From an uncultured Planctomycetales bacterium (GTDB taxonomy: Bacteria > Omnitrophota > Gorgyraeia > Zapsychrales > JAHFFX01), in assembly GCA_964612665.1 (NCBI GenBank), contig CAZTCI010000006.1:77750-141749 (forward strand): 64,000 nt of DNA, written 5' to 3'. The notes below the pieces were generated by a model that made no database searches, was not told the origin of the DNA, and worked only from the letters and a program-made list of their open reading frames with translations. The position numbers were made by a program, and so were the translations under genes. This document shows, in pieces, positions 10,186 to 34,076 of this stretch (positions are counted from its first letter, which is position 1; each line of letters begins with the position of its first letter).

Positions 10186-10227
10186 TTCAGATCGATTTTT
10201 GATAATGATTGCTCTAGACTACATAAA

Positions 10228-10704: not shown

Positions 10705-10720
10705 CGTTGAGAAATAAAAA

Positions 10721-12580: not shown

Positions 12581-12585
12581 AATTT

Positions 12586-13749: not shown

Positions 13750-13759
13750 GGGAGGGATT

Positions 13760-14701: not shown

Positions 14702-14721
14702 TCATAAGAAAGGAGTAGTCT

Positions 14722-15847: not shown

Positions 15848-16341
15848 TTGAATTAATCAAACCTTTCTATAAAGTCTTTACCAGCCCTCCTCAACAGTGG
15901 CATCCTTTACTTATTCATTTTCCATTGGTTTTCTTAATATTAGAAGCCTTCTTTATTTTAGTATTTTTTCTAACTAAAAAGAGCGACTACGAAAAGCTAG
16001 CACTTAATTTTTTGAAGGCAGCTTTTGTCTCTATTCTCATTGCGATGGCCGCTGGAATTCATGACTGCGGACTTAATCTTGGCCCGGGGAATAAATTTGT
16101 GCTGGGATTGCAGGATCGTTTTAAGAATGCTTTTCATTTTCAAAGTTCAGTAACAGTGCATTTCTGGCTTGCGATTGTATTATTGATTCTTGTTTTATGC
16201 CGTTTGGTTTGGTGTTCCTGTGAAGGAACAGGGTTTTGGAAAAGCAGAGAGCAAGCCAGTTTATATGGATTTCTCCTCTTGATCGGTCTTTGGGTGCTGC
16301 TAGCCATGAGTTATGTCGGCGGATCATTGACTCACCAATAG
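15844..16341 (+). CDS. DUF2231-like integral membrane protein
   Basis: 4-5 TM segments and a 'HPLLIHFPLVF' motif shared with the 24447..24884 paralog. GTG start overlaps the upstream stop (GTGA). Confidence 0.5.
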   Translation: MIELIKPFYKVFTSPPQQWHPLLIHFPLVFLILEAFFILVFFLTKKSDYEKLALNFLKAAFVSILIAMAAGIHDCGLNLGPGNKFVLGLQDRFKNAFHFQSSVTVHFWLAIVLLILVLCRLVWCSCEGTGFWKSREQASLYGFLLLIGLWVLLAMSYVGGSLTHQ

Positions 16342-16368
16342 AGCCTTTAACCTTATATCGGAGGCGCT

Positions 16369-16914
16369 TTGCACAAAAACATTAAAATTCTTTTAACCTG
16401 TTCAATTTTTATTCATGGCGGCATAAATCTTTTGGCACCGATTTATGCCATTTTTATTAAAAACATTGGTGGGACAATTATTGATGCCGGTGTAACTGTC
16501 GGTTTTTATGCCATCTTAAGAGGTATACTTTATTTCGCATTGAAAAATTTAAAGGAAAGTAAATTCAGCAAGAGGTTGATGATTTCGTTTGGTTATTTTA
16601 TTTTCTTTTTGGGTTATGTATTTTATATCTTTGCTTCCAATGTGACTCACGTGCTTATTATTCAAGGCCTGCTTGCTTTCGGGGAAGTGGTCATTAATCC
16701 TTCTTGGAGCGCTGTCATTGCCCAGGCGTTGACCAAAGGTAAAGAGAGAGGCATTTATTCTGACTTTTATGGATACAGATCTTTGTTTGAAGGAGCCGCT
16801 GCTATTTCAGGAGGACTCCTAGCAACTAAAGTAGGGTTTCATTTTTTATTTGGGTTAATGGCCAGTTTTGCCTTAATTGCAAGCTTTTTAAGTTTGTTGT
16901 TAAGAGATGAATGA
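16369..16914 (+). CDS. Six-TM membrane protein (MFS-half-like)
   Basis: TTG start 4 nt after GGAGG. The hydrophobicity pattern resembles the C-terminal half of an MFS transporter. Confidence 0.4.
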   Translation: MHKNIKILLTCSIFIHGGINLLAPIYAIFIKNIGGTIIDAGVTVGFYAILRGILYFALKNLKESKFSKRLMISFGYFIFFLGYVFYIFASNVTHVLIIQGLLAFGEVVINPSWSAVIAQALTKGKERGIYSDFYGYRSLFEGAAAISGGLLATKVGFHFLFGLMASFALIASFLSLLLRDE

Positions 16915-17156
16915 TTGATGTCCAAGGACAAAAAGTGGACATCCAATATGTATATGATATATAAAGAGTTAGTAGTTGTTCTCTCTCGAGGAAGTGGACA
17001 AAAATAATGGACTTTTAAGGTGTTTGTCCGCGTTTTGTCTATGGTCTGATGATCAGAGAACACTACTAAAAAATCAATCTGGCAGCTTCAAAAAATCGGT
17101 TTAATTTGGCAATTGAATCATGTATACTCAATGATTAATATTGATAGATTATTTTA

Positions 17157-17178
17157 GGTGGGTGTGTGGTCACCCACC
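17157..17178 (+). terminator. Stem-loop GGTGGGTG-n6-CACCCACC followed by CTTT (weak terminator-like)
   Basis: 8-bp perfect GC-rich stem in the intergenic region upstream of brnT. Confidence 0.3.
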
Positions 17179-17301
17179 CTTTGAATTAAATCATTGTAAT
17201 TAAATAAGTTACAATGGGTTTTTGTTGACTGATAGGATGTAAGAACCTGATCATTTTTCTGTTGAATTGTTTTTGATATATGTTATATTTACATTGTACA
17301 T

Positions 17302-17595
17302 ATGAATGAAATTCATTTTACTTGGGATAAACAAAAAGCAGTCTTAAATCAAAAGAAACATGGTGTTTCTTTTGAAGAAGCCAAAACCATTTTTTATGAT
17401 GACAATGCTGTAGAATTTTTTGATCCAGATCATTCGGAAGGCGAGGATCGATTTATCATGTTAGGAATGAGTTTTATGGCGCGTGTTTTAGTTGTTTGTC
17501 ATTGTGTGAGAGAAAAAGGTTCAATTATCAGGATCATTTCAGCTAGAAAAGCGACAAAACAGGAAAGCAAGAAATATCAGGAGGGAAAAATATGA
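17302..17595 (+). CDS. brnT: BrnT-family ribonuclease toxin (DUF497)
   Basis: MNEIHFTWDKQKAVLNQKKHGVSFEEA...RIISARKATKQE is typical of BrnT. It overlaps the downstream antitoxin by 4 nt. Confidence 0.8.
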   Translation: MNEIHFTWDKQKAVLNQKKHGVSFEEAKTIFYDDNAVEFFDPDHSEGEDRFIMLGMSFMARVLVVCHCVREKGSIIRIISARKATKQESKKYQEGKI

Positions 17596-17807
17596 GATCA
17601 GAATACGATTTTTCTAAAATGAAGGGACGCCGTAATCCATATGCGGTGCGTCTTAAAAAACCAGTTACTATTCGTCTGGGGGATGATGTGATTAGCTATT
17701 TTAAATCTATGGCAGATCAAATGGGGGTTCCGTATCAAAATTTAATCAACCTTTATTTGCGGGATTGTGTTAAATCGCATCGTAAGATCGAATGGGTTGC
17801 ACATTGA
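17592..17807 (+). CDS. brnA: BrnA antitoxin
   Basis: MRSEYDFSKMKGRRNPYA...NLINLYLRDC is typical of BrnA (CopG/RHH-like). Confidence 0.8.
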   Translation: MRSEYDFSKMKGRRNPYAVRLKKPVTIRLGDDVISYFKSMADQMGVPYQNLINLYLRDCVKSHRKIEWVAH

Positions 17808-17810
17808 ACA

Positions 17811-17953
17811 AGTTCTAACCTTCTTGAGCCATCGACCCTTGAATTCAAGATCACCCTTGCCCAGGTAAAACTTCTGTATGCAAGCAAAACGGTTGTCCGA
17901 ATACCCTTTGAAGCTCGTCGATAACGCCGCGACTTCAAAGGGTCATCCACGCT
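17811..17953 (+). repeat. Dispersed intergenic repeat family A, copy 1 (~140 bp, contains an 11-bp-stem hairpin)
   Basis: Roughly 80% identical to 23292..23430. Contains ACCCTTTGAAG-n19-CTTCAAAGGGT (17914-17954) and an EcoRI-centred palindrome. Confidence 0.7.
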
Positions 17954-18281
17954 TACTTGATGCCAATACGAACCTGGAATGGTTTGTAAACTTAATGCAA
18001 AAAATTGAAGTTATGGCTTTTTGGTTTTAGATTGAATCACGATATTGAAAGGTTAGTCAATGAGTCAAGAGGAACAAAAGTTCTTTATCCCCGTTGCTTC
18101 TTCTACAGATCCGAATAATTTAGGAAATCTAGTAAGAGAAGCATTACAAAAAAATTATTCGGCAACTATTTCTGCAGGTAGGCAAGGAAAGAAAAGTTGA
18201 TTTAAAGAAAGTTGAGATTAGGCTGGGCCCAAGTTGGTTTTACTGTAAAATTGGGGAAAGTAGATAATAGGAGTTTCGTCT

Positions 18282-18788
18282 ATGCGGCCCTTTGGTCAGA
18301 AAAATAATTTGGTTAAAGAATTTGAAATGTTAGTGAAGCAGAACAACTTTGAAAGTGCAATTAAAATATTAGTAAAAATACAAGAACAAAATCTTTTAAG
18401 CCCAGAAGTTATAAATGAATATAATGAAATGTGTCTTGATGGATACGCGACTAATTTATTTGCTACTTCAGGAACCCTTTTTGAAGAGAAAAAGTACGAA
18501 GCGGCTAAAGAATATTCTAATATTGTAACGGAATTAATTAGTCAGAATTTAGAAGCATTTAAGCTGGATAGAGATTTGTTCTCAAATTTTTCTAATAAGA
18601 TGGTTGGTGAAATGTCACAGTTACCCAATTTGTCGATGACCATTGAAGAATTAAAAAGTTTCAGAATAAAATACCATACAAGAGCGGAAGAGATTTTTAA
18701 AAACAAAGTTCAAGTGAGCATTGTAAATATGTATACAGATTCACTGCTTAGATCTGCTCTTTGTGGATCGATGAAAAATAAAGATTAA
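18282..18788 (+). CDS. Hypothetical protein
   Basis: 168-aa ORF with an upstream GGAG-like RBS (aataggag). Confidence 0.45.
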   Translation: MRPFGQKNNLVKEFEMLVKQNNFESAIKILVKIQEQNLLSPEVINEYNEMCLDGYATNLFATSGTLFEEKKYEAAKEYSNIVTELISQNLEAFKLDRDLFSNFSNKMVGEMSQLPNLSMTIEELKSFRIKYHTRAEEIFKNKVQVSIVNMYTDSLLRSALCGSMKNKD

Positions 18789-18944
18789 AAAAGGCTCGAT
18801 GATTATGGATTATCAATTTATACATAATTTTATGTTGGATTCTTGCAGTTTTGATACTTCGAAGTGCAGACTGTATCATTAGTTTTTACAAACAAAAGGT
18901 TCCTTTTTTTTAAGAAACAATCTTTTCAACGACCAGCGTTTTGA

Positions 18945-20798
18945 ATGGGTTTCTTAAGTTATATGTTGATTCGTGATGATCAAGTAAAACTCTTCGACGG
19001 ATCTTTCCCTCGATTATGGCGGTTTAATCGTCATCCTTCCATTATTTTTTCATTTGTGGTTTTATTCTTAATTTTAAATCCTTTTATTGCCCACGCCCAA
19101 ATCCGTTTTGCTTCCCCACAGCAATACAATCTGCCTCAACCCGGCGGAGCACAATGCATGGTCGCTGCTGATTTCAATGGCGATGGCTATGCTGATATCG
19201 CTGTGTGCGTCGGATCGGGAGGCGCTGCTGGCGTTGGCGTATTTATGAACAAAGGAGACGGGACATTCTTGCCGCCTGTTATTTATGGAACCGGTTCAGG
19301 TGTTACGGTCGGACTTGTTGCGATCGACCTTAATGTCGATGGACATTCTGATCTTGTGGCTATCACAGGAGCTGGTCAACTGAACGTTCTTCTTGCCCGC
19401 AGCAATGGGACATTTGTGCCGTCTGTGCTCTATCCCCTCCCTGGAGGAGGAGACGCATGGTCTCTGGTAGCGGGTGATTTTAACGGCGATGGAAAAAAGG
19501 ACATTGCCGTTTCATATTCAGGCGGCAATGCTATCTTTTTAAACCGTAATGACGGCACACTCGCATTTTCCTCAAAGTTTTCAGCTCCCGCAGACAGCAT
19601 TAGCTTGTGCTGCGGAATTGCGGTTTTGGCAGACGCCGCCGACGTCAATGGCGATGGTGTTGATGACATCCTTACGACGGAGGAAAATAATGGATTTTCC
19701 ATATTGTTTGGCCAGCGCAACGGGACCATGAGTGCGCCGACCGTTTATACACCGGGCTTCTCTTATGCTGTCTATCACCTGGCCGATGTCACCGGCGACG
19801 GAAAGCCGGATGTCGTTCTGAGTGAGCAGTATGCCGCGTTTGCTCTTTTTAAAAATGATGGTACAGGAAAATTTGGGGCCCCTACGGCATTTGAAGTCAA
19901 CAATTATGGTTATGGACTGTCTGTAGCCATTGGCGACTTCAATGGAGATTTCTCTAATGATGTTGTTGCAGGGCCTGCAGACGGTAATCTATATATATTT
20001 ACCAACGATGGAAACGGAAATTTCAGCACTCCCGACCTAGAGCCGGTCAGCTTCGACGTTTGTTGTGGCGGCAACAGAGCAAACGCAATCGCGGATTTCA
20101 ACGGTGATGGATCTCTCGACCTCGCTTATTATGACGGGGCGTCCCAGGTTACTGTGCTTCCCAACACTTCAAAGGTTGTTGTTACTCATAGTTCATTTAA
20201 TCTTTCAACAGATCATGGCGGAAATACCGGCACAGTAACGTTAACTTTATATGGAAACGGGCCGGTTTCCGGAGATACGTTTAAACTATCTTGTGCCCAG
20301 GGTGAAATAAACGGAAGCAATCAAACGAATTCAGAGAAATCATTGACTGCTACTTTTGACCTCACAGGCCAGCCTCCGGGTCAGTGCAGTGTGATTGTTA
20401 CCCAGCCCGACGGCAAGACACAGACGGTGCCTCATCCGTTTACTATCGAACAAGGAGGCGCGGCGGATATTTGGGTGGATGTTGTGGGGTTTGATAAGAT
20501 CAGGGCGGGAAAAGCGCAGTCTTATTTCGTTAATTTTGGGAATCAAGGAAATGTGGATTCTAATAGTGGAACGGGCATATGGTTAAGATTTCCATCATTT
20601 CTAAATTATTTAACTCCAGAAAATGCAAAGCCAAGCCGTTCTCTTCAATCCGATACAGACACCCTTTTATATTATGAATTGAGTAATCCTTTATCAGCAG
20701 GAAGCAGCCAGGTATTTGCTATTCAGTTTATTCTGCCAGATGACCCACAATATGCTCATCGGGTATTTCAAATACAAAGCTGGACGGATGGAAACTAG
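18945..20798 (+). CDS. Secreted FG-GAP/VCBS-repeat (integrin-alpha-like beta-propeller) protein
   Basis: Repeated 'DFNGDGxxDIAV' and 'DVNGDGVDD' Ca-binding FG-GAP motifs, at least seven times, after a signal-like hydrophobic segment. Confidence 0.7.
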   Translation: MGFLSYMLIRDDQVKLFDGSFPRLWRFNRHPSIIFSFVVLFLILNPFIAHAQIRFASPQQYNLPQPGGAQCMVAADFNGDGYADIAVCVGSGGAAGVGVFMNKGDGTFLPPVIYGTGSGVTVGLVAIDLNVDGHSDLVAITGAGQLNVLLARSNGTFVPSVLYPLPGGGDAWSLVAGDFNGDGKKDIAVSYSGGNAIFLNRNDGTLAFSSKFSAPADSISLCCGIAVLADAADVNGDGVDDILTTEENNGFSILFGQRNGTMSAPTVYTPGFSYAVYHLADVTGDGKPDVVLSEQYAAFALFKNDGTGKFGAPTAFEVNNYGYGLSVAIGDFNGDFSNDVVAGPADGNLYIFTNDGNGNFSTPDLEPVSFDVCCGGNRANAIADFNGDGSLDLAYYDGASQVTVLPNTSKVVVTHSSFNLSTDHGGNTGTVTLTLYGNGPVSGDTFKLSCAQGEINGSNQTNSEKSLTATFDLTGQPPGQCSVIVTQPDGKTQTVPHPFTIEQGGAADIWVDVVGFDKIRAGKAQSYFVNFGNQGNVDSNSGTGIWLRFPSFLNYLTPENAKPSRSLQSDTDTLLYYELSNPLSAGSSQVFAIQFILPDDPQYAHRVFQIQSWTDGN

Positions 20799-20847
20799 AT
20801 GGACAAGTTAATTGTTTTTGTTTAAATGATTCTAAAATAAAAAAATC

Positions 20848-23250
20848 ATGAAAAAAGTTAAATATTATTCATTTTTATTTTTTATTTCAATATGTTCGAT
20901 TGCAAAGCCGAGTATGGCTTTTACTTCATGTCCCCCTCCAATTAATACAACGTTAGTCGGTATCAATCAAGGGCCCTGTGTAAATGGACATTATGATATA
21001 ACCCTTGCTGGACTTGCAGGTATTTCTTCTAACCTTCGTCCATCTATATTTGCCATTATTAGAGTTGGCTTGACGGCCGTTTTTGTGGATTTGCACGAAA
21101 CAACATGGGGGTTAACTAGTCTTCCCCCGGCATTTCCTAAACTTATTCCTGATCCCAATAATTATGTTTCAAGCCATCATTTTGATCAGCCTCCTGCCAG
21201 TAATAATTTAGTGGCTTTTAAATCAGGAATGGATTATTTAAACAAAGAACGAACGGATGCTGTTAATTCTTTTAAGAACTGTCAGGTTCCTGCTGGATTA
21301 AATGCATTAGGTAAAGCTTTACACGCCCTTCAGGACGCATATTCTCATTCAAATTATGTTGACGGAATGACAATGGATGATCAAGAAATTTATGATCAAC
21401 AGCTCCGGAATGGAACATTTACACAATTACCGGTTAGTTTAAAACTAACAATTTATGGTTTCGCAATCCCTCCCAATACGGATCCTGAAAATCCTGAAGG
21501 AAATTGCACCAAGGAAAAGACGATTCCTTATTGTCATAAATTTTATGCTAAAGATTATCCAAGTGAGAATGATGAGGCTCTTAATAATTACAAATGGGCA
21601 TTTGATGCTGCTGTTAATGCGACAACGGATTTTGTTATAGGCATTATAAAGGATGTGGGTGTCGATAAATGGCAGGATGTTGTAAATTATGGGAATCCTT
21701 TAAAGTCCAGTGCTTGCAACCCCAATAATTCATGTTCGATAAATCCATCTGGCATTTGCAACAGTAATTCTATTGAAGGCATCACCTCAGGCGACCCTAA
21801 CGACAAAGCCGGTTCCCAAGGCGTCGGGCCGCAGCAATACATTTCCGGTGCCACGCCACTTCGCTACGCAATCGAATTCAGTAATATGTCAACGGCAACG
21901 GCCCCTGCTGCCAAGGTCGTTGTAACCGATCAACTCAATCTTACCGACGACGATTTGAGCACATTTAACCTTGGCCCCATCAGCGTCGCGAATCAATTGG
22001 TCACACCACCGCCCGGCACGGATGATTTTGCAACGATATTGGATTTGCGTCCGGCGAATAATTTGTTGCTGGCGATCGTCACACACTTGGATTTAAAGAC
22101 GGGTTTGCTCACTTGGACTTTTGAATCGCTCGATCCAACGACGAATAAACCGCCAGAAGATCCAACGGTTGGCTTTTTACCGCCGGGCGCGGAAGGAAGT
22201 ATATTTTTTACGGTGATGCCGAAAGCAGATTTGGCAACGAACACCAAGATTGAAAACTTTGCAACGATTGTCTTTGATGCGAATGCTTCGATGAATACGC
22301 CGACGTGGTTCAACACGATTGACAATACACCACCGGTTAGCCACGTTCACAATCTTCCCGCCCAAGAAACTCAATCTGACTTTACCGTTGAATGGGCTGG
22401 CACCGATGAAGGCTCGGGCATTAAAGATTTTAGTGTCTTTGCCGCTGAAGATGATGGAGTATTCAATCTGCTTTTGACCGATACAACTTCCACATCAGTA
22501 TCGTTTCATGGTAACCCGGGACATAAATATAGATTTTACAGCTTAGCCCGGGATTTGACCGGAAACCGAGAAGTGAAGCAACCCGTCGATGAGGCCGTGA
22601 CAACGGTTATGGGAGATACAACTGCGCCGACGACAACAGCGGTGCCTTCGCCGCAGCCAAACAATAACGGATGGAACAAAAGTGATGTCGTGATTACTTT
22701 AACAGCGGCGGATAATTCCGATGGATCGGGGGTTAAACAGATTCAATACGCCTTAAACGGCGCTCAAACACTTACGGATCAAATCATTGCCGGGAATACG
22801 ACGAAGGTGACCGTTTCCAAGGAAGGGACAACCACTTTGACTTATTTTGCAACGGACAACGCAGGGAATGTTGAGCCAACCAAATCACTCACGATCAAGA
22901 TCGATCGCAGCGGCCCAACCATTTCAGGAATGCCGGTCAATTGCACACTCTGGCCACCGAATAAAAAAATGGTTCAAGTGGCGACGGTTTCTGCCAAAGA
23001 TAATCTTGCGGGACTGGTTAAGGGCTCATTCAAGGTGACAGGAGTAAGTAATGAACCTTCTGATCCGAAACATCCTGACATTGTCATTAGTCCCAATGCC
23101 TCAGGAGATTTTGTGATTCAATTGAACGCAGATCGTTCCGGCAACGGCTCAGGACGTATTTATACATTAACGACGACAGCTTCGGATTTGGCCGATAATA
23201 CCTCGACGGTAAATGCAACCTGCAAAGTGCCTCATGATCAGGGGCATTAG
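20848..23250 (+). CDS. Large secreted multidomain protein (DUF11-like 'conserved repeat' domain plus Ig-like/OmpL47-type domains)
   Basis: Signal peptide. 'GVGPQQYISGATPLRYAIEFSNMSTATAPAAKVVVTDQL' is DUF11-like. 'NGWNKSDVVITLTAADNSDGSGVKQIQY...' is a bacterial Ig-like domain. There is also an N-terminal His/Asp-containing 'LHALQDAYSHSNY' block. Confidence 0.65.
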   Translation: MKKVKYYSFLFFISICSIAKPSMAFTSCPPPINTTLVGINQGPCVNGHYDITLAGLAGISSNLRPSIFAIIRVGLTAVFVDLHETTWGLTSLPPAFPKLIPDPNNYVSSHHFDQPPASNNLVAFKSGMDYLNKERTDAVNSFKNCQVPAGLNALGKALHALQDAYSHSNYVDGMTMDDQEIYDQQLRNGTFTQLPVSLKLTIYGFAIPPNTDPENPEGNCTKEKTIPYCHKFYAKDYPSENDEALNNYKWAFDAAVNATTDFVIGIIKDVGVDKWQDVVNYGNPLKSSACNPNNSCSINPSGICNSNSIEGITSGDPNDKAGSQGVGPQQYISGATPLRYAIEFSNMSTATAPAAKVVVTDQLNLTDDDLSTFNLGPISVANQLVTPPPGTDDFATILDLRPANNLLLAIVTHLDLKTGLLTWTFESLDPTTNKPPEDPTVGFLPPGAEGSIFFTVMPKADLATNTKIENFATIVFDANASMNTPTWFNTIDNTPPVSHVHNLPAQETQSDFTVEWAGTDEGSGIKDFSVFAAEDDGVFNLLLTDTTSTSVSFHGNPGHKYRFYSLARDLTGNREVKQPVDEAVTTVMGDTTAPTTTAVPSPQPNNNGWNKSDVVITLTAADNSDGSGVKQIQYALNGAQTLTDQIIAGNTTKVTVSKEGTTTLTYFATDNAGNVEPTKSLTIKIDRSGPTISGMPVNCTLWPPNKKMVQVATVSAKDNLAGLVKGSFKVTGVSNEPSDPKHPDIVISPNASGDFVIQLNADRSGNGSGRIYTLTTTASDLADNTSTVNATCKVPHDQGH

Positions 23251-23291
23251 GATTTTTAGTTATTTTTTCAGGCGGCACAGATTAGCAAACT

Positions 23292-23430
23292 GGTTCTAAT
23301 CTTTTTCATCCAGCGACCCTCGAATTCAAAACCACTCCTGCAAAAAGAGCATTCTTGAACGAAGGACCACGGTTGTTCGAATACCCTTTGAAGCTCGTCG
23401 AAAACGCCGCGACTGCAAAGGGTCATCTAC
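23292..23430 (+). repeat. Dispersed intergenic repeat family A, copy 2
   Basis: Aligns with 17811..17953 over about 140 bp, with the same hairpin-forming core 'ggttgt(c/t)cgaataccctttgaagctcgtcga(t/a)aacgccgcgact(t/g)caaagggtcatc'. Confidence 0.7.
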
Positions 23431-23493
23431 CCAAAGCTTTAGGCTCGACAAATCGTTTGACTAAAAAATAATTTGGTGCGACACTAAATACTG

Positions 23494-23919
23494 ATGAAAA
23501 GGTTACACAAAAAGATAATCAGTGGATTTCTTCCCATCCCTTTTTTCTTCGCAATTACTTTTTGTTGCTGTTTAGGCGAAAAAGTTTTTGCGGATGAACA
23601 TCACTCCAATTTTTCAATGTCACACCATCAAGAATCCCAAGAAGTGGAAGAATCTCATCACGCTGATCATCAAGATCATTCTGAGGGGCAGGATGAATGT
23701 TCTTGTCCGAAACATTTTAGTTTTCTTTCACAACCGCCGGTTGATATAACTCCGGATTTATCGTTTCAACTACTCGCTAAGGGTGCTTTAATTGTCCCTG
23801 CATTTCAAGTTTTTCTTTTATCTTTCACATCCCCATATGCCAACGGCCCGCCTTGGCAAGACTATCGCGATTACGCGAGCATTCCTTTATTCTTCAAAAA
23901 TTCTAACCTACGTATTTAA
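23494..23919 (+). CDS. His-rich putative metal-binding secreted/membrane protein
   Basis: Hydrophobic N-terminus, then 'DEHHSNFSMSHHQESQEVEESHHADHQDHSEGQDECSCPKHF'. It sits at the head of the copper-type gene cluster. Confidence 0.45.
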   Translation: MKRLHKKIISGFLPIPFFFAITFCCCLGEKVFADEHHSNFSMSHHQESQEVEESHHADHQDHSEGQDECSCPKHFSFLSQPPVDITPDLSFQLLAKGALIVPAFQVFLLSFTSPYANGPPWQDYRDYASIPLFFKNSNLRI

Positions 23920-24046
23920 TCGAATCTAAAACTAAACCTAGATTCTTAACGCCAGAAGTGTGTTTTCTTTTGGATTAAGTAAATTCTAGGTTTTCGTGTT
24001 TATTCGTCCGTTTTTTAAACCGTTCAATTTAAAAAGGAGAAATAAA

Positions 24047-24436
24047 ATGAAATCTAAATTAATTGCTTTAAGTCTTGGGTTACTTTTGTCTTTATCGTAT
24101 TCCAATTTTGTTTTAGCTCATGAAGGAGAGAATCATGATGAAGCTACAGAAAATCAAAAAATAATTGCCATCGACAATAGTGATCCAACCAAAGCAGTAG
24201 AAACTGGCAATAAAATCTGTCCTGTGAGTGGCGATAAAATTCCGGCCCCTGGTGAAAAAGGGACGATGGGAGATAATCCTATTAAAGTTGTTTATAAAGG
24301 AAAAATCTACAACCTTTGTTGCCCGATGTGTTTAAAGGATTTCAAAAAGAATCCTGAAAAATACAGCAAAATGGCCGATGATGAAGTTGCTAAAGAAAAA
24401 ATGATGCAAGGAGCTCAAGAAGGTAACCAAAAATAA
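24047..24436 (+). CDS. YHS-domain (TRASH-like) periplasmic metal-binding protein
   Basis: Signal peptide; 'CPVSGDKI...KVVYKGKIYNLCCPMCLKDFKKNPEKY' is the YHS domain signature. RBS AAAGGAGA. Confidence 0.7.
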   Translation: MKSKLIALSLGLLLSLSYSNFVLAHEGENHDEATENQKIIAIDNSDPTKAVETGNKICPVSGDKIPAPGEKGTMGDNPIKVVYKGKIYNLCCPMCLKDFKKNPEKYSKMADDEVAKEKMMQGAQEGNQK

Positions 24437-24446
24437 GGAGGCCTTC

Positions 24447-24884
24447 ATGGATTTCTTAAATCATTTTTATGTTCCTCTGTTGCATCCGAGAGTTATCCAT
24501 TTCCCTATAGCGCTGTTTATCGGCGCTATAGGGATGGAACTCCTTAGTTTGATCTTTAAGAAAGACCGGTTTCATCGGACAGCTATAGATATTTATGTGG
24601 TGGCAACCTTAATAACGCCTTTGGTTGTTCTAACTGGTTTGCAGGAAGCGACGCATTTACATCTAGGCCACCCGGTATTAACCATCCATAAGAATTTTGC
24701 TTTTTTGACGATGTGGACATCGTTAATAAGTCTACCGATTCTTTGGATGGTTCATAAAAAAAATCCAAAAATGTTAAGACTCGTATTTTTGATTTTTCTT
24801 TTATCTATCGTGACTTTAGTAGCCATTACAGGACACAACGGTGGCCGAATGGTTTATGAATACGGTGTGGGAATGGAGCAATAA
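24447..24884 (+). CDS. DUF2231-like integral membrane protein (paralog of 15844..16341)
   Basis: 'HPRVIHFPIALFIGA' motif and 4 TM segments. Confidence 0.5.
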   Translation: MDFLNHFYVPLLHPRVIHFPIALFIGAIGMELLSLIFKKDRFHRTAIDIYVVATLITPLVVLTGLQEATHLHLGHPVLTIHKNFAFLTMWTSLISLPILWMVHKKNPKMLRLVFLIFLLSIVTLVAITGHNGGRMVYEYGVGMEQ

Positions 24885-24898
24885 AGGAAAATTACATT

Positions 24899-26332
24899 AT
24901 GAAAAATCAATTTATCGTTGGGATAAGTTTGATCGGTCTTTTTTTATTTTCTGGCTGTGCTTTGGCATCAACTAGGGCGAGTTTAAAGCAAATAAATAAT
25001 CTAGTGAAGGATCAGACAGGAGTATCTGATAGCACTCGGCAATTAAGCGATGCGGATGCTCAAAAAGAAATTAACTCGATTCTTCAAGAACCGCTCACGG
25101 TTGATAGCGCGGTCAAAATTGCAATTTTAAATAATCCTTCAATTAAAGCGGCGATGGCCCGTCTTGGAATATCGCAAGCGGACATGGTTCAGGCAGGATT
25201 ACTGCATAATCCTAAACTTTCAGGATTTGTCCGTAAGTCGAGCGAAGAGAACAGTAAAACCAACACCGAATTTGAAGTCAAGCAAGACGTCATGGATTTA
25301 TTGTTTTGGCCATTGCGTAAAAGACTCGCCAACACTCAGTTTAAACAAGCTGAGTATGAGCTCGCCAAAACCACGATCGATTTTATTAAGGAAGTTCGTA
25401 TTGGATTTTACGATTGGCAAGCCAGTGAACACATGTTTTCCATGAGACGAGATCATTTTAAGGCCGAAGAATCTGCGTTGGAACTAGCTAAGAGACAAAA
25501 GGAATCTGGAAACATTAATGAGTTAGATTGGGAACAGCAAAATGGAGTTTACTATCAAGCGAAAATTGATTTAGGTCGCAGTGAGCTTGAAGCGAATGTA
25601 TCCAGACAAAAGCTACGAAATCTTTTGGGATTAACCAATAGCGAATTGACCTGGTTGTCTGAGGAAAGTTTGCCAGATTTACCATCGGAGGAATTCTCTT
25701 TGGGTGAATTGGAAAGAAAGGCGATTGGCAATCGGATTGAAATTGCTATGAAACGTCAGGAAATAAAAGCTTTTGAGCAATCCTTGACGCTGGCGCGTGT
25801 AGGCATCATTCCATCGGTGGAAGGTGGGTTTAATTGGGAAAAAGAATCTAGTGGAGAGAAATTAAAAGGCCCGGCCTTTGAGGCCGACGTTCCAATTTTT
25901 AATCATAAACAAGCAGACAGACTTCGTTCGAAAGCTCAAATTGAAGCAAGTAAAAAAGAGTTGGAAGCATTGGAAGCTCAAGTACGAATGGAAGTGCGGT
26001 TAGCTTTTGATCAACTGACTTCCGATAAAACTATTGTGGAAACTTATGCGGAGGCCATTCCAGTTCGTCAGAAAATTCTAAAAGAAACGCTGTATCACTA
26101 CAACTATATGCTCAAAGGAGTTTACGATTTATTACGAGCTAAGCAGGAAGAGATCAATACCCAGCACGATTATATCGTGGCTTTGCGCGATTATTGGATT
26201 GCGCGTTCAGAACTGGAGCACGCTGTAGGAACATCACTTCCTGTTCAACAAACAAAAACAAAAAAATCAATAAAACCAGATAGCGAACCTATGCCTGAAC
26301 ACGAGCATCATTCTCACGGAGGTCATAAATGA
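24899..26332 (+). CDS. Outer-membrane efflux protein (TolC/CzcC family) with a His-rich C-terminus
   Basis: Lipoprotein-like signal (LFLFSGCAL), two OEP repeats, and a C-terminal 'PEHEHHSHGGHK'. Overlaps the downstream MCO start (ATGA). Confidence 0.75.
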   Translation: MKNQFIVGISLIGLFLFSGCALASTRASLKQINNLVKDQTGVSDSTRQLSDADAQKEINSILQEPLTVDSAVKIAILNNPSIKAAMARLGISQADMVQAGLLHNPKLSGFVRKSSEENSKTNTEFEVKQDVMDLLFWPLRKRLANTQFKQAEYELAKTTIDFIKEVRIGFYDWQASEHMFSMRRDHFKAEESALELAKRQKESGNINELDWEQQNGVYYQAKIDLGRSELEANVSRQKLRNLLGLTNSELTWLSEESLPDLPSEEFSLGELERKAIGNRIEIAMKRQEIKAFEQSLTLARVGIIPSVEGGFNWEKESSGEKLKGPAFEADVPIFNHKQADRLRSKAQIEASKKELEALEAQVRMEVRLAFDQLTSDKTIVETYAEAIPVRQKILKETLYHYNYMLKGVYDLLRAKQEEINTQHDYIVALRDYWIARSELEHAVGTSLPVQQTKTKKSIKPDSEPMPEHEHHSHGGHK

Positions 26333-27573
26333 GAAAACGTATTTTTTATTTACTAATCGTTATGTTTTTATTTTCTCTCGTACCGTTAATCCAAGCGGAA
26401 GTTAAATCTTCTGAGAATCAAAAGTTGCCTTACACGCCAGTCATAACACCTAATGGGAGCACATTGCCTTGGACAATGGCAGAAGATGGGGTCAAGGTTT
26501 TTCATTTAACAATCGATCAATGTAAACATGAAATTGCACCGGGTATGACGATCAACGCTTGGTGTTATAACGGTGAAACGCCGGGCCCAACGATTGAAGC
26601 TGTTGAGGGAGATCGCGTAAGAATTTTTGTCACAAACAAGTTGCCTGAACAAAGCGCAGTTCATTGGCATGGCATACGACTTCCCAATGGTATGGACGGT
26701 GTTTCTGGGTTAACACAGAAAGCGATTCAAACAGGAGAAACTTTTAAATATGAATTCACTTTAAAACAACACGGGACATTCATGTACCATTCTCACGGTG
26801 ATGAAATGGTTCAAATGGGTTTAGGGACAATGGGATTTCTGATTATTCATCCCAAGAATGAATTCCATAAAGTCGATCGGGATTTCGCCATTTTCTTAAA
26901 TGAATGGTTTGTTGATCCTGGAACAAAAACACCCAATCCAAATGTTATGACAGATTTTAATATTTTTACTTTCAATAGTCGTGCCTTTCCTGGGACAGCT
27001 CCTCTAGTTGCTAAAACAGGTGACCGCATACGAATTCGCTTTGGTAATGTGGGACAGGAGTCTCATCCCATTCATTTACACGGATTCAATTTTAAAGTCG
27101 TAGCAACCGATGGAGGGGACATCCCAGAATCAGCTCAATGGCCTGAAACAACGGTGCCCGTTGATCCGGGAACAACACGAACAATTGAGTTTGTCGCCGA
27201 TGTCCCTGGTGATTGGGCATTGCATTGTCACCGTCGACATCATCCCATGAATGCGATGGGTCATGAAATTCCGAATATGATTGGAGTTAATCAAGACGAT
27301 GTGAAAGATAAAGTTCGTGATTTAGTACCCGGATACATGGCGATGGGAGAAACTGGTATGGATGAGATGACTCAAATGAATATGAAGGGGCCAGAGAATA
27401 CTTTGCCAATGATGGGTGGAGAAGGTCAATTTGGATCTGTCGGCATGGGAGGCATGTTTACTGTTCTCATGGTTCGGGATAATTTAAAAGATTATGATCA
27501 TCCGGGTGACTATCCGTATCCGAAGGGTACGGTGGCAGAGGTAGTAACTGAAAATAAAGAGGATAAAAAATGA
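26329..27573 (+). CDS. Multicopper oxidase (CopA/PcoA-like copper resistance MCO)
   Basis: Copper-binding motifs 'VHWHGIRLPNG', 'HSHGDEM', 'HPIHLHG', 'HCHRRHHPMNAM', and a Met-rich segment 'MGETGMDEMTQMNMKG...MMGGEGQFGSVGMGGM'. Confidence 0.85.
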   Translation: MRKRIFYLLIVMFLFSLVPLIQAEVKSSENQKLPYTPVITPNGSTLPWTMAEDGVKVFHLTIDQCKHEIAPGMTINAWCYNGETPGPTIEAVEGDRVRIFVTNKLPEQSAVHWHGIRLPNGMDGVSGLTQKAIQTGETFKYEFTLKQHGTFMYHSHGDEMVQMGLGTMGFLIIHPKNEFHKVDRDFAIFLNEWFVDPGTKTPNPNVMTDFNIFTFNSRAFPGTAPLVAKTGDRIRIRFGNVGQESHPIHLHGFNFKVVATDGGDIPESAQWPETTVPVDPGTTRTIEFVADVPGDWALHCHRRHHPMNAMGHEIPNMIGVNQDDVKDKVRDLVPGYMAMGETGMDEMTQMNMKGPENTLPMMGGEGQFGSVGMGGMFTVLMVRDNLKDYDHPGDYPYPKGTVAEVVTENKEDKK

Positions 27574-27911
27574 CACATACTTATCATATCCAATGGATGC
27601 CGTGCGCCAGTTGTGCGCAGAAGATTGAGAAGGTTTTAAAAGAAATACCAAATATTACATCTGTGAAGATTGATTTACAATCAAAGCAGGCGACCGTCAG
27701 CATGACGGAGCATGTGAGCACCGAACAATTGAACAAAAGATTAAAAGCAGCAGGAAGCTATTCATTAAGCGAACAAGTGTTGATTTCAGCTGTTGAAATA
27801 AAGAATGATTTCACGCCCTTGATTATCATTTTTTCAATCATTGTTCTTTTTACATTAGTAAGGCAATGGGGAGTCAGTTTTAATGCCATTCGGGCAATGG
27901 CCATAAATTGA
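27570..27911 (+). CDS. Heavy-metal-associated (HMA, MxCxxC) domain protein with a C-terminal TM helix; possibly a truncated N-terminus of a P1B-ATPase
   Basis: 'MPCASCAQKIEKVL' HMA motif. The C-terminal 'PLIIIFSIIVLFTLV' is a TM segment, followed by a stop and then about 500 bp of non-coding DNA containing repeat B. Confidence 0.6.
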   Translation: MTHTYHIQWMPCASCAQKIEKVLKEIPNITSVKIDLQSKQATVSMTEHVSTEQLNKRLKAAGSYSLSEQVLISAVEIKNDFTPLIIIFSIIVLFTLVRQWGVSFNAIRAMAIN

Positions 27912-28079
27912 GAACCCGGTCGTGCTCTTCTATTCTTCCCTTAATTATAAATTTCCGTTTGACACAGTTATTTAATTTTATATAATCCCAAAAGAGGCAT
28001 CACTCCAGATGTCTCAGCATATCCTGCAAAGCGCCCGCAACCAGTATCTACCCAAGCCTTCTTCGATTATTAATCTGTT

Positions 28080-28177
28080 CTTACTGACTTTTGCATTGCA
28101 AAAATCTAGTATTAGGCCTTTTCTCCTCGAGAATGATAGAACAACCTTATCTTGGGAAGAGAAAAGGCCAATAATAA
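28080..28177 (+). repeat. Dispersed repeat family B, copy 1 (~100 bp, two conserved hairpins)
   Basis: Roughly 80% identical to the reverse complement of 52040..52144. Hairpin 1 is GACTTTTGC-att-GCAAAA(A/G)TC. Hairpin 2 is GGCCTTTTCTC-n~33-GAGAAAAGGCC. Confidence 0.7.
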
Positions 28178-28415
28178 GTTATTCAAAAGTTTGAATAATA
28201 ATTCCTAACACTTTTGGCTCAAGCAGCGCCGAAGGTCTTGCTTGGGCATAAGTATTTTTTATTAAAACCGTCAGAGAAGTGAAAGGAGGCACTTTATGTA
28301 ATGTCTAAATTCAAGTACCATAGGGTAAGATTCTTGTCTTCAACTTGGTCCAGATTTTCCCGATAGAGGCAGGATTTTTTCGAAAGAAATTTTAAAATAA
28401 GATTGTGAGATCACT

Positions 28416-29450
28416 ATGAAGAGAAAAATTCTTTCAATGCTTTTTTTGTTCTCTGTTCTTGCTTTAAGTGTTGCAACCTCCCAACTTTTTGCTCAAATTG
28501 TAAATCCGACGCAGACAAACGTCTTAAATTTTGCTGCCAGAGGCGACGGGCAGACTGATGATTCGGCCGCCTTGCAATCCGCTATTGATGCCACGCCTGA
28601 AAACGGAACATTGTTTTTTCCCCAGCCCGCGCAGTATTACCTCCTCACGCAAGGATTGCGTCTTAAATCGAACATAATTCTGAAAGGCGACGAATCAACC
28701 ATTTTCATGCCGGCCAATGATGAAGAAAACGGCAAAAGTATTTTTTACACTGATTCGAGAAGCAACACTGCCAACGTCGAAATCGCGGGGCTTATTCTTA
28801 AATCGTCCAACCAGATCCCGGGCAGCGGTTATTGGACGGGATCTTTAATAAGCAATAATAAAGGCATGTACTTGCAAAACACCAGTAATTTCAATATTCA
28901 TGATCTAGTCATTTCAAATATGGTGGACGGCATTAAAATAGCGACAATTAATAATAGCCGCATCTCGTTTAAGGACGTAAAAATTCTGCAGACCGCAACC
29001 GATATATATGTCAGTAACGCCTCGGGAATTTTTATGGACGGATTGACGCTGGACAGCACGGGGTTTCTTGAAACCAACCACCATCTTCACAATGTCTATA
29101 TCTAATCCAACGTCCAGGATTTGCATATCGATAATTCAGTGTTTTTGAACACAGCCGGGGCGGGCGTCCAGATTTACCAGGAAGGCGGTACTCCGGCGGA
29201 AAATATCTTTGTCACCAACGCGTCTTTCTATAATTGCCGCGAAGTCCTGGTGTCCTGGGCAAGCCGAAATATCCATCTTGAAAAATTCAAGGCGATCAAC
29301 TGTGCCTTTGTGTTAAACCTGCAAGACACTCAGGTCTTTGTGACTGACGGTGAGGTGAATGCCGGTCATGATTTCTTTATGTCAGATTCTAATCCAGGTT
29401 CTGATAGCGTAATCTCGAACATCTTATTTAATGGAGCGAAGCTTTATTAG
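28416..29450 (+). pseudogene. Right-handed beta-helix (pectate-lyase-superfamily / GH28-like) secreted protein interrupted by an in-frame TAA at 29103-29105
   Basis: ORFs 28416..29105 and 29121..29450 are in the same frame (both ≡0 mod 3) and are separated only by one TAA. The N-terminus 'LNFAARGDGQTDDSAALQSAIDA...GTLFFP' is the pectate_lyase_3-type signature. The sequence after the stop continues the beta-helix. Confidence 0.6.
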
Positions 29451-29503
29451 CGCCAATGCCTAAAGAACAGTGATGATTTCTATTTTGTTTTAATGGTTGA
29501 AAA

Positions 29504-29557
29504 GGACTTTCGAAGCCGGCTGTTCTCCGAGAGAGAACAGCCGGCTTCGAAAGTTCC
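29504..29557 (+). terminator. Very long (~22 bp) near-perfect hairpin GGACTTTCGAAGCCGGCTGTTCTC-cgag-GAGAACAGCCGGCTTCGAAAGTTCC downstream of the beta-helix gene
   Basis: Perfect complementarity apart from a 1-nt bulge. There is no strong T-tract afterwards, so it may be a bidirectional terminator or a processing/structural element. Confidence 0.5.
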
Positions 29558-29715
29558 TAATTGATATTGTTTATTACGTCTTGAATTGGAAAGTTTCGAA
29601 TTCAAAAGCATGACCGCGTTTCCAGGAAGGAAAACAGTTTCAAAGAATTATGAGAGAAGTGATTCATAATAAATGTTTTTCTTGAGGATGACTCGGTTGT
29701 GCTTTTTAGGATCAC

Positions 29716-29752
29716 CAACCCTCTTCATAAATGCAGAGGGGGTTTTTCTTTT
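29716..29752 (+). terminator. Rho-independent-terminator-like hairpin CCCTCT-tcataaatgca-GAGGGG followed by TTTTTCTTTTT
   Basis: GC stem followed by a T-run, in a gene-poor intergenic region (possible 3' end of an sRNA). Confidence 0.4.
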
Positions 29753-30407
29753 TGCCTCGTTGCTTTGTTGACTCATAATAGAGCCTCAAAAGGTTGTTCA
29801 TAGTAAGACCGCTTGCATAGAAAAAATTTAGAGAACAGAATAAATTCTCAATACAAGGGCTTTTGTTTGCCCTTGAATCGCCCTTCTTTAGAAATTTTTG
29901 GTGAGGCGAAAGGGTTCAATGAATGGCACTTGGAATCTGTTTTTAGAATATTCTTTATAACCGTTTTGTAAACAGGCTTTTGTGATAACACTCAGAAGTG
30001 TCAATTTTATCCAAAAATTTTGTAACTTTATGGTTTCATACGAATAACCCATGGAAAGATTGCCCAACCTTATGGACAAAAAACGATGAAGAAATAATGC
30101 AAATTTATCAGTCAGGAGATTCACAGGCCATGACACATATTTTTTAACGCCATAAAATTCGGATATTAAATTTCTGTTTCAGCATATTAGGCAATCGCGC
30201 TGATGATGAGAAAGATGGATAAGATACGATAATCCTTACAGAACTCTTGCGAATTTTTTCCTTCCATTATAAAATCCAGATTGTTTTTCGAACGCTTTTT
30301 TGCTACAACAATGTGTCTTGTGTAATAAACACCTGACCGCGTACCATCAGAATAATATTTAGGAGCTTTATAAGATATTTAGTCTTAATCAATGAAAGGA
30401 GCTGAAA

Positions 30408-30608
30408 ATGAAAAGATTAGTTATTGTCATGCTTTTGGGTCTTTTGGCTGCACCTACACTTTGGGCAGCAGATTCTGATACCCAAAACACACCAAAGCCG
30501 GCTGTGCATTCTCATAAAGGCAAGGGTGCCCATCATCATAGACGGCATAATCAAACTAATTCAAAGACGAAAAATAATAAACAAACTGATGTTAACGGTG
30601 ATAAGTAG
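30408..30608 (+). CDS. Small secreted His/Lys-rich protein (66 aa), hypothetical
   Basis: RBS AAAGGAG 7 nt upstream. Signal peptide MKRLVIVMLLGLLAAPTLWA, then 'HSHKGKGAHHHRRHNQ'. Confidence 0.45.
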   Translation: MKRLVIVMLLGLLAAPTLWAADSDTQNTPKPAVHSHKGKGAHHHRRHNQTNSKTKNNKQTDVNGDK

Positions 30609-31034
30609 ATCCGTTTTTTAGGTTCGTTTTTCAATGGGCTGGAGTTTTAACTCCGGCCCATTAACATTATAGGCAAAGAAACGAATTATCAGGCAACAGC
30701 ACTTTTCGCACTCCGACGTTTTCCTTCCCCCTGAAATTATAAAAATAAAATCGCACGAATTTGCGCTTACAAATTCCTCTGTATGCTTTAAAGATTTATC
30801 CCATATAATAATGTCTCAAGCAAGGACGCTGGGCTGGGCGCCCGCGGATTTTGTTACGAAGCGCCCAGCCCGGCTATGATTCAGAAAAATTAATCTTTAA
30901 TCCTCCAAGACTTTCACGTTCGGCTGTTCTTTCACGGAGAACCTGTTCTGCCTTTCCTAATACTGATGAAGGCAGAGCTCGTTCACAGTTAAACGCGAAA
31001 GTCCTATCCTCACTTTTCCTTCAAGGAGAATATC

Positions 31035-31945
31035 ATGCCATCGCTTAATCGGCGCCGGCTTAACTGGAAAGATTTGACCCGTCGGGTCTGGAAAGAATTT
31101 TGGGAAGACCGCGTGCTGGATCAATCTGCGATGATGTCGTTTTATTTTTTTTGTCGATATTTCCGCTTTTAATTTTTCTCATGGATCTTCTTGGATTTTT
31201 GTACCGCACTGATCCTTTGTTAAAGGATTTCTTCGAGCAAACAATCAACAAATATATCTCGGACTTTGTTCCGGGTTCCGCTTCGCTTTTGATCAAAGCA
31301 ACCTTAAGTGAAATCACTCAAAACCCGGCGGGCCGCAAATTTTCGCTGGCCCTTTTGTTCACCGTATGGTCCGCTTCAAGTGGGATGTCGGCGATTATGG
31401 AAGGATTGAATATTGCTTACGGCATCAAGGAAACTCGCAGCTGGTTTAAAAAAAAATTGGCGGCGTTTATTTTGACGATTGTCTGCGGCGGGTTTATGGC
31501 GGTGTCTTTGATCATTCTTATCAGTGGAGAACGTTTAGGACAATTCATTTGGGGGCATTTGATCTTTCGAAATTTTATGGGGATTGTGGGCCGAATTATT
31601 GAAGGCTTGCTTGTGATCGTCTCGGCGTTTATCTTTTTTAATATCCTGTATGTATACGCACCCAATATTCACCGACGACAATGGCACTGGTTTATGCCGG
31701 GGACCATGATCGGCGTCGGCATTTGGCTTATGTCGTCGTTGGGATTCAAACTTTATTTAAGTGTTTATGACCGTTATACACTGACCTACGGATCGTTAGG
31801 TGCGGTCATTGTTCTTATTATGTGGTTTTATTTGACCGGAATCGCTATTTTGACCGGGGCGGAGGTCAATTCTGAAATTGAAAAGGCTTCAGGAATGCTG
31901 GATCCCGACGGAATGAAACGCGATAGAAGGGAAAAAAGGGAATAA
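31035..31945 (+). CDS. YihY/BrkB-family inner-membrane protein; the reading frame as given needs a +1 shift inside a T8 homopolymer (31145-31152)
   Basis: Frame 0 from ATG 31035 gives MPSLNRRRLNWKDLTRRVWKEFWEDRVLDQSAMMSFYFF and then a stop at 31170-31172. The ORF-track frame (31100..31945) continues '...LSIFPLLIFLMDLLGF...' with the full YihY TM core. Together they make a canonical YihY N-terminus only if the T-run is 9, not 8. Confidence 0.6.
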
Positions 31946-32891: not shown

Positions 32892-34076
32892 ATGAACTCA
32901 TCGCCAATAAGACAAATGCTGAACAAGGTTCCCGCGGTCACTATTTATTTTTGGATCATTAAAATTTTTTGCACAACGGTTGGAGAGACAGCCGCAGATT
33001 ATCTTAATATGACGCTTCATTTCGGGCTCACCGGAACATCATTGGTTATGAGCGTTTTGCTCACCGTCATTATGTTCTTTCAATTTAAGGCAAACAAATA
33101 TATTCCTTCCATTTACTGGCTCGCGGTTGTTTTAATCAGTATCGTCGGTACTTTAATCACGGATAATCTTACGGATAATCTCAATGTTCCTCTTGAAACA
33201 ACTACCATTGTATTTTCGGTTCTTCTCGCGCTGAGTTTTATTGTCTGGTATGCACGTGAGAAGACATTGTCTATTAATTCGATAGATACACCGCAACGCG
33301 AAACTTTTTATTGGCTTGTCGTGCTTTTTACATTCGCCCTAGGGACAGCCGCCGGAGATCTTACTGCCGAGAAATTTGAGATCGGGTATTTGAAATCAAT
33401 TTTTATATTTGGCGGGATCGCGATCGCCGCGATTGTTTATTATAAAATGAAAGGAACCGCCGAACACAAGCATGAATCTGTCCACGCGATTCTTATTTTT
33501 TGGATCGCCTATATTTTTACCCGGCCTTTGGGGGCTTCTATCGGCGATTATCTTTCCCAATCACCCGCCGACGGTGGTCTTGGGTTGGGAGCAACGGCAA
33601 CCAGTGCGCTTTTTCTGATCACGATTTTAGCGTTAGTGGTTTATTTAACAATCACGAGCAAGGCCAGCAATGCTCGACGCGGCCGGTTGGTTGGTGTTAT
33701 TACTCTTGTATTGATCATTGGGATCGGCGGTTGGTTAGTTTTAGGAAATTCATCTCATAAAACAAAAACGTTAACGGCTCAAAAATCTACCTTGCCTTTA
33801 GGTGACCTTTCCTTATTTATAAAAATTGCTGAAGATAGTTTGAAGCTCGTAGAAGCGGATGACCTTCCAAGTGCGAAACGTCGGATAAAAGATCTTGAGA
33901 CAGCATGGGACGATGCTGAAGCAAAACTGCGGTCTATGAGTCCTGCCGATTGGACGTCTGTTGATGCATCCATCGACCGCGTGCTTTCGAAGCTGCGCGC
34001 CAGTCAACCGGACAAAAATGCTTGCGTTAATGCTTTAACGGCTTTCATTGCAAAATCTAAAAGCATATCCAAATAA
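32892..34076 (+). CDS. Membrane protein with repeated 'GET-x-(A/G)D' TM hairpins (COG4705-like), plus a C-terminal soluble domain
   Basis: Paralogous to 46284..47051 ('KVPAVTIYFWIIKIFCTTVGETAADYL' versus 'KVAQITAFFWVMKILATTLGETFGDLL'). Confidence 0.5.
   Translation: MNSSPIRQMLNKVPAVTIYFWIIKIFCTTVGETAADYLNMTLHFGLTGTSLVMSVLLTVIMFFQFKANKYIPSIYWLAVVLISIVGTLITDNLTDNLNVPLETTTIVFSVLLALSFIVWYAREKTLSINSIDTPQRETFYWLVVLFTFALGTAAGDLTAEKFEIGYLKSIFIFGGIAIAAIVYYKMKGTAEHKHESVHAILIFWIAYIFTRPLGASIGDYLSQSPADGGLGLGATATSALFLITILALVVYLTITSKASNARRGRLVGVITLVLIIGIGGWLVLGNSSHKTKTLTAQKSTLPLGDLSLFIKIAEDSLKLVEADDLPSAKRRIKDLETAWDDAEAKLRSMSPADWTSVDASIDRVLSKLRASQPDKNACVNALTAFIAKSKSISK

Follow-up and report, generated by a model that had tools for sequence, protein, structure and literature searches.

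The window, by which we mean the whole 64-kb stretch of DNA that was analyzed, contains a 98-nt repeat in two copies, which are inverted with respect to each other, 24 kb apart and located in unrelated intergenic gaps. Copy 1 (28080-28177, plus strand, element positions 1-98) occupies part of a 504-nt gap; the HMA-domain gene at the end of an OEP-multicopper oxidase-HMA cluster lies 170 nt before it, and a pectate-lyase-like gene lies 240 nt after it. Copy 2 (52047-52144, minus strand, where element position p corresponds to window position 52145 - p) takes up 98 nt of the 162-nt gap between a PMT_2/polysaccharide-deacetylase gene and an OEP-AcrB pair, and ends 22 nt upstream of the OEP start codon. 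This arrangement is the one given in a preliminary description of the locus, which had placed copy 1 after the HMA gene and copy 2 before the TolC/RND pair. The same description had noted that both copies are next to efflux or metal genes. The window is made up mostly of such genes (ChrB/ChrA, DUF2231, YHS, OEP, multicopper oxidase, HMA, RND), so that adjacency to them is expected from position alone and is uninformative. No transposase, RAYT or recombinase gene was found near either copy, and no transposase or RAYT (Y1) gene was found among the ORFs of the 64-kb window or in the approximately 13.5 kb added at its edges.

A number of other features of the window were recorded. Positions 1-11140, together with the DNA just to the left (L037 3955-13553), look like an integrated mobile or defence island, with genes for a large serine recombinase (Resolvase + Recombinase), a REP_ORF2-G2P replication protein, two SpoVG proteins, an SF1 helicase-MTES_1575 nuclease fusion, an S24-SRAP fusion, a CoiA-like protein, a ParB-methyltransferase and SIR2. 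The metal-resistance region at 11639-27911 encodes ChrB, ChrA, DUF1259, redoxin, two DUF2231 proteins, a truncated MFS protein (181 aa), a YHS-domain protein, OEP, multicopper oxidase and HMA. Close homologues of the multicopper oxidase are found in MAGs labelled with many phyla, suggesting horizontal spread, and five clustered base differences between the OEP gene (window 25054-25077) and a Logan contig of run SRR12313477 point to strain heterogeneity in the source community. A second dispersed repeat of 69 nt is present at 17882-17950 and 23362-23430 in direct orientation; its copies are 90% identical, each has an 11-bp stem (ACCCTTTGAAG/CTTCAAAGGGT), and the pair brackets a 5.4-kb block with three genes (an unknown 168-aa ORF, an FG-GAP protein and a DUF7619 protein). 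The pectate-lyase-like gene (28416-29450) appears to be divided between neighbouring ORFs of 229 aa and 109 aa and is possibly a pseudogene, and in the approximately 1.6 kb that follows (29450-31100) no ORF exceeds 85 aa. At the location of copy 2, the order of the genes is not that of a relative (window 49958-56583 versus L009 6966-13356), and copy 2 lies at the junction. While the window has a fused PMT_2/polysaccharide-deacetylase gene (670-681 aa) upstream of OEP-AcrB, L009 has separate PMT_2 and deacetylase genes downstream of AcrB.

The two copies of the 98-nt repeat, which is 36% G+C, align without gaps at 83% identity, with 17 differences. A shared 32-mer, CTTACTGACTTTTGCATTGCAAAARTCTAGTA, has exactly two matches in the window (28080 on the plus strand and 52144 on the minus strand), with 0 expected in shuffles, and a repeat search of the window returned 28080-28177 and 52047-52144 as inverted arms of 98 nt, 83% complementary. 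When both regions were compared by blastn with 400-500 nt of context (E = 7e-23), homology was limited to the 98 nt. The coordinates first proposed for copy 1 therefore hold, while copy 2, initially drawn as 52040-52144, has its real limits at 52047-52144, the homology ending at ...GGCCARTAATAA. Similarity of the flanks past the 98 nt was not significant, with p = 0.4-0.8 upstream and p = 0.03-0.23 downstream, the latter varying with gap costs. A 10-mer, CGAAGGTCTT, is found approximately 50 nt downstream of both copies on the element strand (28230-28239 and 51988-51997), where at copy 1 it forms the loop of a terminator-like hairpin; its occurrence at both sites is not significant alone and is probably due to chance. 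No third copy was found in the 64-kb window, either by blastn or with a covariance model built from both copies and run with filters off, which gave 119 bits for copy 1, 120 bits for copy 2 and 19.6 bits (E = 0.1) for the next-best candidate.

Both copies fold into a 9-bp hairpin with a 3-nt loop (hairpin 1) and a second, long-stemmed hairpin which encloses the variable centre of the element (hairpin 2), and the folding energies beat those of shuffled sequences on both strands, as RNA or as DNA (z = -3.8 to -6.6). Hairpin 1 covers element positions 7-27. In copy 1 (28086-28106, plus strand) it is formed by GACTTTTGC-ATT-GCAAAAATC, with a C.A mismatch at 9/25 that becomes G.U on the opposite strand, and is extendable by 4-6/29-31. 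In copy 2 (52118-52138, minus strand) it is formed by GACTTTTGC-ATT-GCAAAAGTC and has 9 perfect pairs. A hairpin 1 with a 3-nt loop had been reported for both copies, and it is indeed present in both, but perfect only in copy 2. Hairpin 2 covers positions 32-93. In copy 1 (28111-28172, plus strand) it consists of an outer stem (32-34/91-93), a bulged A35 and the paired segments GGCCTTTTCTC/GAGAAAAGGCC at 36-46/80-90; in copy 2 (52052-52113, minus strand) the outer stem is the same except for C33:G92 in place of T33:A92, and there is a wobble at 45/81 and a mismatch at 46/80.

Divergence between the copies is uneven along the element. The 5' block (positions 1-46) comprises CTTAC-TG, hairpin 1, the linker CTAGTAYTA (TCTAGTAYTA with the preceding T) and the 5' arm of hairpin 2, with CTTACTG and CTAGTAYTA flanking the stems, and the 3' block (positions 82-98) comprises the 3' arm of hairpin 2 followed by ARTAATAA. 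The variable centre between them (positions 47-81; 28126-28160 on the plus strand in copy 1) accounts for 14 of the 17 differences. This amounts to 14/35 positions in the centre compared with 3/63 in the end blocks (positions 25, 33 and 92; Fisher p = 2e-5), or 97% identity in the end blocks versus approximately 60% in the centre, gap-free throughout. The loop of hairpin 2, previously described as diverged, has thus changed at 14 positions but is still alignable. Within the end blocks, unpaired bases (the hairpin 1 loop, the linker and the 3' tail) are conserved as well as paired bases.

When pairs were counted on one specified structure, 22 of 26 were invariant between the copies. The sole compensatory pair is 33/92 (C:G versus T:A), which adds three pairs to hairpin 2 past the bulged A35. 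As for the remaining changes, 45/81 becomes a wobble, and 9/25 and 46/80 are each broken in one copy. The covariation control is uninformative with n = 2 sequences, as 257 of 500 shuffles reach the observed value. The earlier wording, stems kept and loop diverged, is true as a description; its reading as a structure-constrained element is weaker, since the unpaired ends are conserved too and only one pair is compensatory. Because unpaired bases sit in the conserved blocks, it is the sequence of both ends that is conserved and not pairing alone, and the pattern is better described as an element with both ends kept in sequence and a variable centre.

The surroundings of copy 1 include two predicted signals that lie outside the repeat and occur at this locus only. 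A sigma-70 promoter with a 12/12 match to consensus (TTGACA-16-TATAAT; 27959-27986, plus strand) is located approximately 94 nt upstream, and a terminator-like hairpin (-19.7 kcal/mol) followed by a U-run (28217-28262, plus strand) is located 40 nt downstream. With this predicted promoter before it and the terminator-like hairpin after it, copy 1 is probably transcribed in the sense orientation. The two signals bound a unit of approximately 270 nt holding copy 1 and a 61-aa ORF (28009-28194), and the unit may represent a small RNA, a leader belonging to the gene at 28416, or a small gene that the repeat has disrupted. Copy 2 was found to have no promoter on its strand, and terminator-like sites were called on neither strand of either copy. 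If copy 2 is cotranscribed with its neighbours, its RNA would be the reverse complement of the copy 1 RNA. An intrinsic terminator formed by the repeat's own hairpins was considered and rejected; the tails that follow them are AAUAAUAAG and AGUAAGUGG.

Genes adjoining the repeat were traced in the k=31 Logan assemblies of four metagenome runs (SRR12313477-80). Contigs identical to the window were recovered, yet these were broken inside the element. At copy 1, left contigs stop at 28153 (2 runs) and right contigs begin at 28124 (2 runs); they share exactly the 30-mer at 28124-28153, an overlap of k-1 that is characteristic of a branching node. At copy 2, the contig from the left stops at 52109 and right contigs begin at 52115 (2 runs), and element positions 1-65 (52080-52144, minus strand) appear in the k=31 assemblies as a separate 65-nt collapsed repeat segment which starts exactly at element position 1. 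No self-reverse-complementary 31-mers were present at the break points. Since the longest exact stretch common to copies 1 and 2 is 24 bases, the k=31 branches were not caused by these copies between themselves. The simplest explanation of the branches is that the community contains at least two further copies, of which the break points would make one identical to copy 2 over positions 1-65, with a different 5' flank, and the other identical to copy 1 over positions 45-74. One run assembled straight through copy 1 (contig L036), and given this unbroken contig the additional copy resembling copy 1 may belong to another strain or have low coverage. The edge of the collapsed segment at element position 1 independently confirms the 5' boundary of the repeat, and the break points suggest that a few versions of the variable centre (at least two) are shared between copies, and that the centre does not drift freely.

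Searches beyond the window returned no relatives of the repeat. Rfam gave 0 matches at gathering score in the whole window, and around both copies only noise of 21.5 bits or less in E-value mode, well under the family thresholds. The exact 20-mer CTGACTTTTGCATTGCAAAA was searched in 185,579 GTDB representative genomes and gave 3 chance matches (Flavobacteriaceae, Pseudonocardia and Arcobacteraceae), none with the rest of the element. In JGI metagenomes there were 0 matches to a pattern of hairpin 1 and linker, and 17 matches to the hairpin 2 stem with a free loop, none of them with hairpin 1. Viral contigs, plasmids and phages gave 0 matches each. Extension of the window through Logan contigs (approximately 10 kb to the left and 4 kb to the right) revealed no further copy. 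The related loci of other organisms (OEP 73-81% and multicopper oxidase 92% identical) also had no copy; gene order in these relatives differs from that of the window at both sites, so that no exact empty site can be defined. As far as can be seen, the repeat family is restricted to this uncultivated lineage.

The repeat was compared with the known classes of small bacterial repeats. Like bacterial MITEs such as the Nezha elements of cyanobacteria, it is approximately 100 bp, non-coding, intergenic, found in both orientations, strongly folded on both strands and better conserved at its ends than in its interior. The Correia elements of Neisseria share these features. As in MITEs, the element is short (98 nt), carries no transposase gene and is dispersed in several copies, two in the window and at least two more indicated by the break points. 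Bacterial MITEs are often cotranscribed with their neighbours and are sometimes annotated as small hypothetical ORFs (PMC3184786). The differences concern the termini and the fold: MITEs have terminal inverted repeats of approximately 10 bp or more, target-site duplications and usually one long hairpin, whereas the repeat has two side-by-side hairpins and no known partner insertion sequence. Its terminal complementarity is only 6 nt in copy 2 (TTACTG at 2-7 with CAGTAA at 90-95) and 5/6 in copy 1, and the 33/92 covariation favours an alternative pairing of positions 91-93 over a terminal inverted repeat. No target-site duplication was consistent between the copies at any boundary offset, the flanks being GTT on both sides of copy 1 and CCA / AGG at copy 2.

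REP/BIME elements, which go with RAYT transposases and include SMAG of Stenotrophomonas, resemble the repeat in being extragenic and palindromic and in lacking target duplications; BIMEs are composite and mosaic. Their mobilisation is thought to use hairpin recognition on single-stranded DNA, and effects on the stability of upstream mRNA have been reported (PMC3184786). In contrast to REPs, which are G+C-rich palindromes of 20-40 nt with a GTAG-type tetranucleotide by the stem, present in tens to hundreds of copies and often near a RAYT gene, the repeat is 98 nt and 36% G+C, has no GTAG, and has no RAYT gene in the window. The pneumococcal BOX, RUP and SPRITE elements are intergenic repeats built of modules, of which those at the ends are conserved and the middle one varies or is optional, and they form stable RNA hairpins (PMC3184786). 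The repeat is like them in its small size, intergenic location, conserved ends, variable middle and stable hairpins; it has no sequence similarity to them and belongs to another host lineage. While BOX varies by the number of boxB modules, the repeat keeps its length (98 nt, no gaps) and the sequence of its centre changes.

PATEs derived from IS200/IS605 also resemble the repeat in that they lack terminal inverted repeats and target duplications and have a hairpin near each end. In the repeat, 6 nt separate the hairpins from the 5' end and 5-8 nt separate them from the 3' end, and TTAC is found at positions 2-5 in both copies (n = 2). In IS608, TTAC is the target and cleavage takes place approximately 19 nt away from the left hairpin. 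The C-TTAC at the start of both copies is reminiscent of this target, but the cleavage site would here be 1-2 nt from the hairpin, with no room for a guide sequence, and hairpin 2 spans the entire variable centre and is not a compact right-end hairpin. The IS200/IS605 resemblance is only a lead. An integron attC site was also considered and rejected on inspection by eye, as no RYYYAAC / GTTRRRY core sites bound the hairpin.

The repeat is neither a canonical MITE nor a canonical REP. We regard it as fairly probable that the two copies represent a new, lineage-restricted family of small non-coding dispersed palindromic repeats of the MITE/REP-like class, to which bacterial MITEs, REP/BIME, BOX/RUP/SPRITE and Correia elements belong. 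The preliminary description had left the choice between a MITE/REP and a small structured RNA; a dispersed repeat is favoured by the sharp boundaries, the two orientations, the intergenic sites, the additional copies indicated by the break points, the conserved ends around a variable centre and the absence from related loci, while the strict MITE and REP tests gave the departures described above. With respect to how such a family might arise, an enzyme provided in trans perhaps copies the element into new intergenic sites, or did so in the past; this enzyme would recognize the conserved ends, possibly as hairpins on single-stranded DNA. Recognition of this kind would explain why the ends are kept in sequence and the centre is free to vary or swap. 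Once inserted, the element would be carried passively in neighbouring transcripts in either orientation, where its hairpins may affect RNA stability or processing. The mobility, the trans-acting enzyme and any effects on expression are inferred. Against a dispersed repeat, only two complete copies were seen, the others being deduced from break points, with one run unbroken at copy 1; there is no target-site duplication, terminal complementarity is confined to TTACTG/CAGTAA, and no transposase or RAYT gene is nearby. The compensatory pair at 33/92, and the promoter and terminator-like hairpin at copy 1, also fit a role at the RNA level.

Such a role would be that of a structured RNA module whose functional unit is the two hairpins. 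The module would be a small RNA, or would act in cis as a UTR or intercistronic element, and would serve, for example, in exonuclease protection or as a site of processing or protein binding at the edges of efflux and metal operons. The stability of the folds relative to shuffles is consistent with this reading, as are the compensatory change from C33:G92 to U33:A92, two changes which remain wobble pairs in the sense strand and the placing of copy 1 between a perfect sigma-70 promoter and a terminator-like hairpin. With copy 2 only 22 nt before the OEP start, its cotranscription with the operon is almost certain. The copies are, however, oppositely oriented relative to their flanking genes, so that cotranscription would give complementary RNAs; copy 2 lacks a promoter on its strand, and both copies lack a terminator of their own. 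Unpaired positions are conserved like paired ones, two of the stem changes break pairs, the shuffle control carries no information at this sample size, and neither Rfam nor the other genomes and metagenomes searched held a homologue. We therefore consider a structured RNA module unlikely, with a small but real chance of being correct.

Mobility and RNA function may also be combined. The repeat would then be a mobile structured-RNA cassette placed at metal and efflux operon borders, with both hairpins kept by selection for pairing and an exchangeable apical module on the second, acting on transcript stability, processing or translation. Selection for pairing is hinted at by the C33:G92 / U33:A92 swap, and we consider this cassette a decidedly unlikely form of the repeat. 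In a further variant of this unlikely reading, the repeat would derive from a Y1/HUH-type, hairpin-recognizing single-strand transposon of an uncultivated lineage with unusual end geometry.

Two palindromes, the perfect GACTTTTGC-ATT-GCAAAAGTC (9-3-9) and CTAGTACTAG, could instead serve at the DNA level, as operators for a dimeric regulator common to two efflux/metal loci. Perfect palindromes are typical of operators, both copies adjoin OEP-containing efflux loci, and the sequence of hairpin 1 is conserved including its loop. The conserved unit of 98 nt with sharp edges is, however, far beyond operator size, copy 1 is downstream of its metal operon and not upstream, no regulator gene adjoins either copy, the break points imply copies elsewhere, and in a window this rich in metal and efflux genes adjacency is of little weight; an operator is accordingly improbable. 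A plain segmental duplication or recombination scar, that is, intergenic DNA copied once with neither mobility nor function, appears just as improbable. It would account for the presence of only two full copies and for the location of copy 2 at a gene-order junction, with PMT_2/deacetylase upstream of OEP-AcrB here and downstream in L009, but neutral decay would not give ends at 97% and a middle at 60%, and the k=31 branch points need extra copies.

With respect to coding capacity, the preliminary description had kept open a repeated micro-ORF with the peptide LLTFALQKSS(I/T)RPFL... and had proposed conservation of the reading frame as a check. One frame is open through both copies, and at copy 1 the 61-aa ORF 28009-28194, which lies between the strong promoter and the terminator-like hairpin, is called as a protein (P0001) in the NCBI record. 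The opposite-strand frame is equally open, however, the peptide similarity begins mid-ORF with unrelated N-terminal parts, and the copy 2 ORF would need a start codon inside the oppositely oriented OEP gene. Ten of 12 changed codons are nonsynonymous and the differences are distributed 4:6:7 over codon positions, so that the check on the frame revealed neither a synonymous excess nor a third-position bias. A profile of both peptides, searched against 5.8 billion proteins and 1.84 billion representatives (the latter read fully by HMMER), found only the window's own 61-aa ORF, and the peptide had no Pfam match. Look-ups of P0001 and of two further window ORFs, 53455-56583 and 32892-34076, gave no result. 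Elements of this kind are known to give rise to ORFs that end up annotated as hypothetical proteins (PMC3184786). A small protein gene was rejected for want of a conserved start, a synonymous excess or homologues, and with its probability close to nil the micro-ORF reading is refuted for practical purposes.

If the two copies do represent a dispersed repeat, the uncultivated source bacterium would provide a further example of a small dispersed repeat family specific to its lineage, and annotators should not treat the 61-aa "protein" that overlaps copy 1 as a gene. The repeat would then explain the breaks in short-read assemblies of the source organism at both sites and may mark recombination-prone junctions in the metal-resistance region. 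Should many copies be found to covary, or to hold a consistent position relative to operons, the repeat would be a mobile regulatory RNA module. Likewise, if the unlikely cassette form were true, it would be a regulatory module spread by transposition and not a purely selfish repeat.
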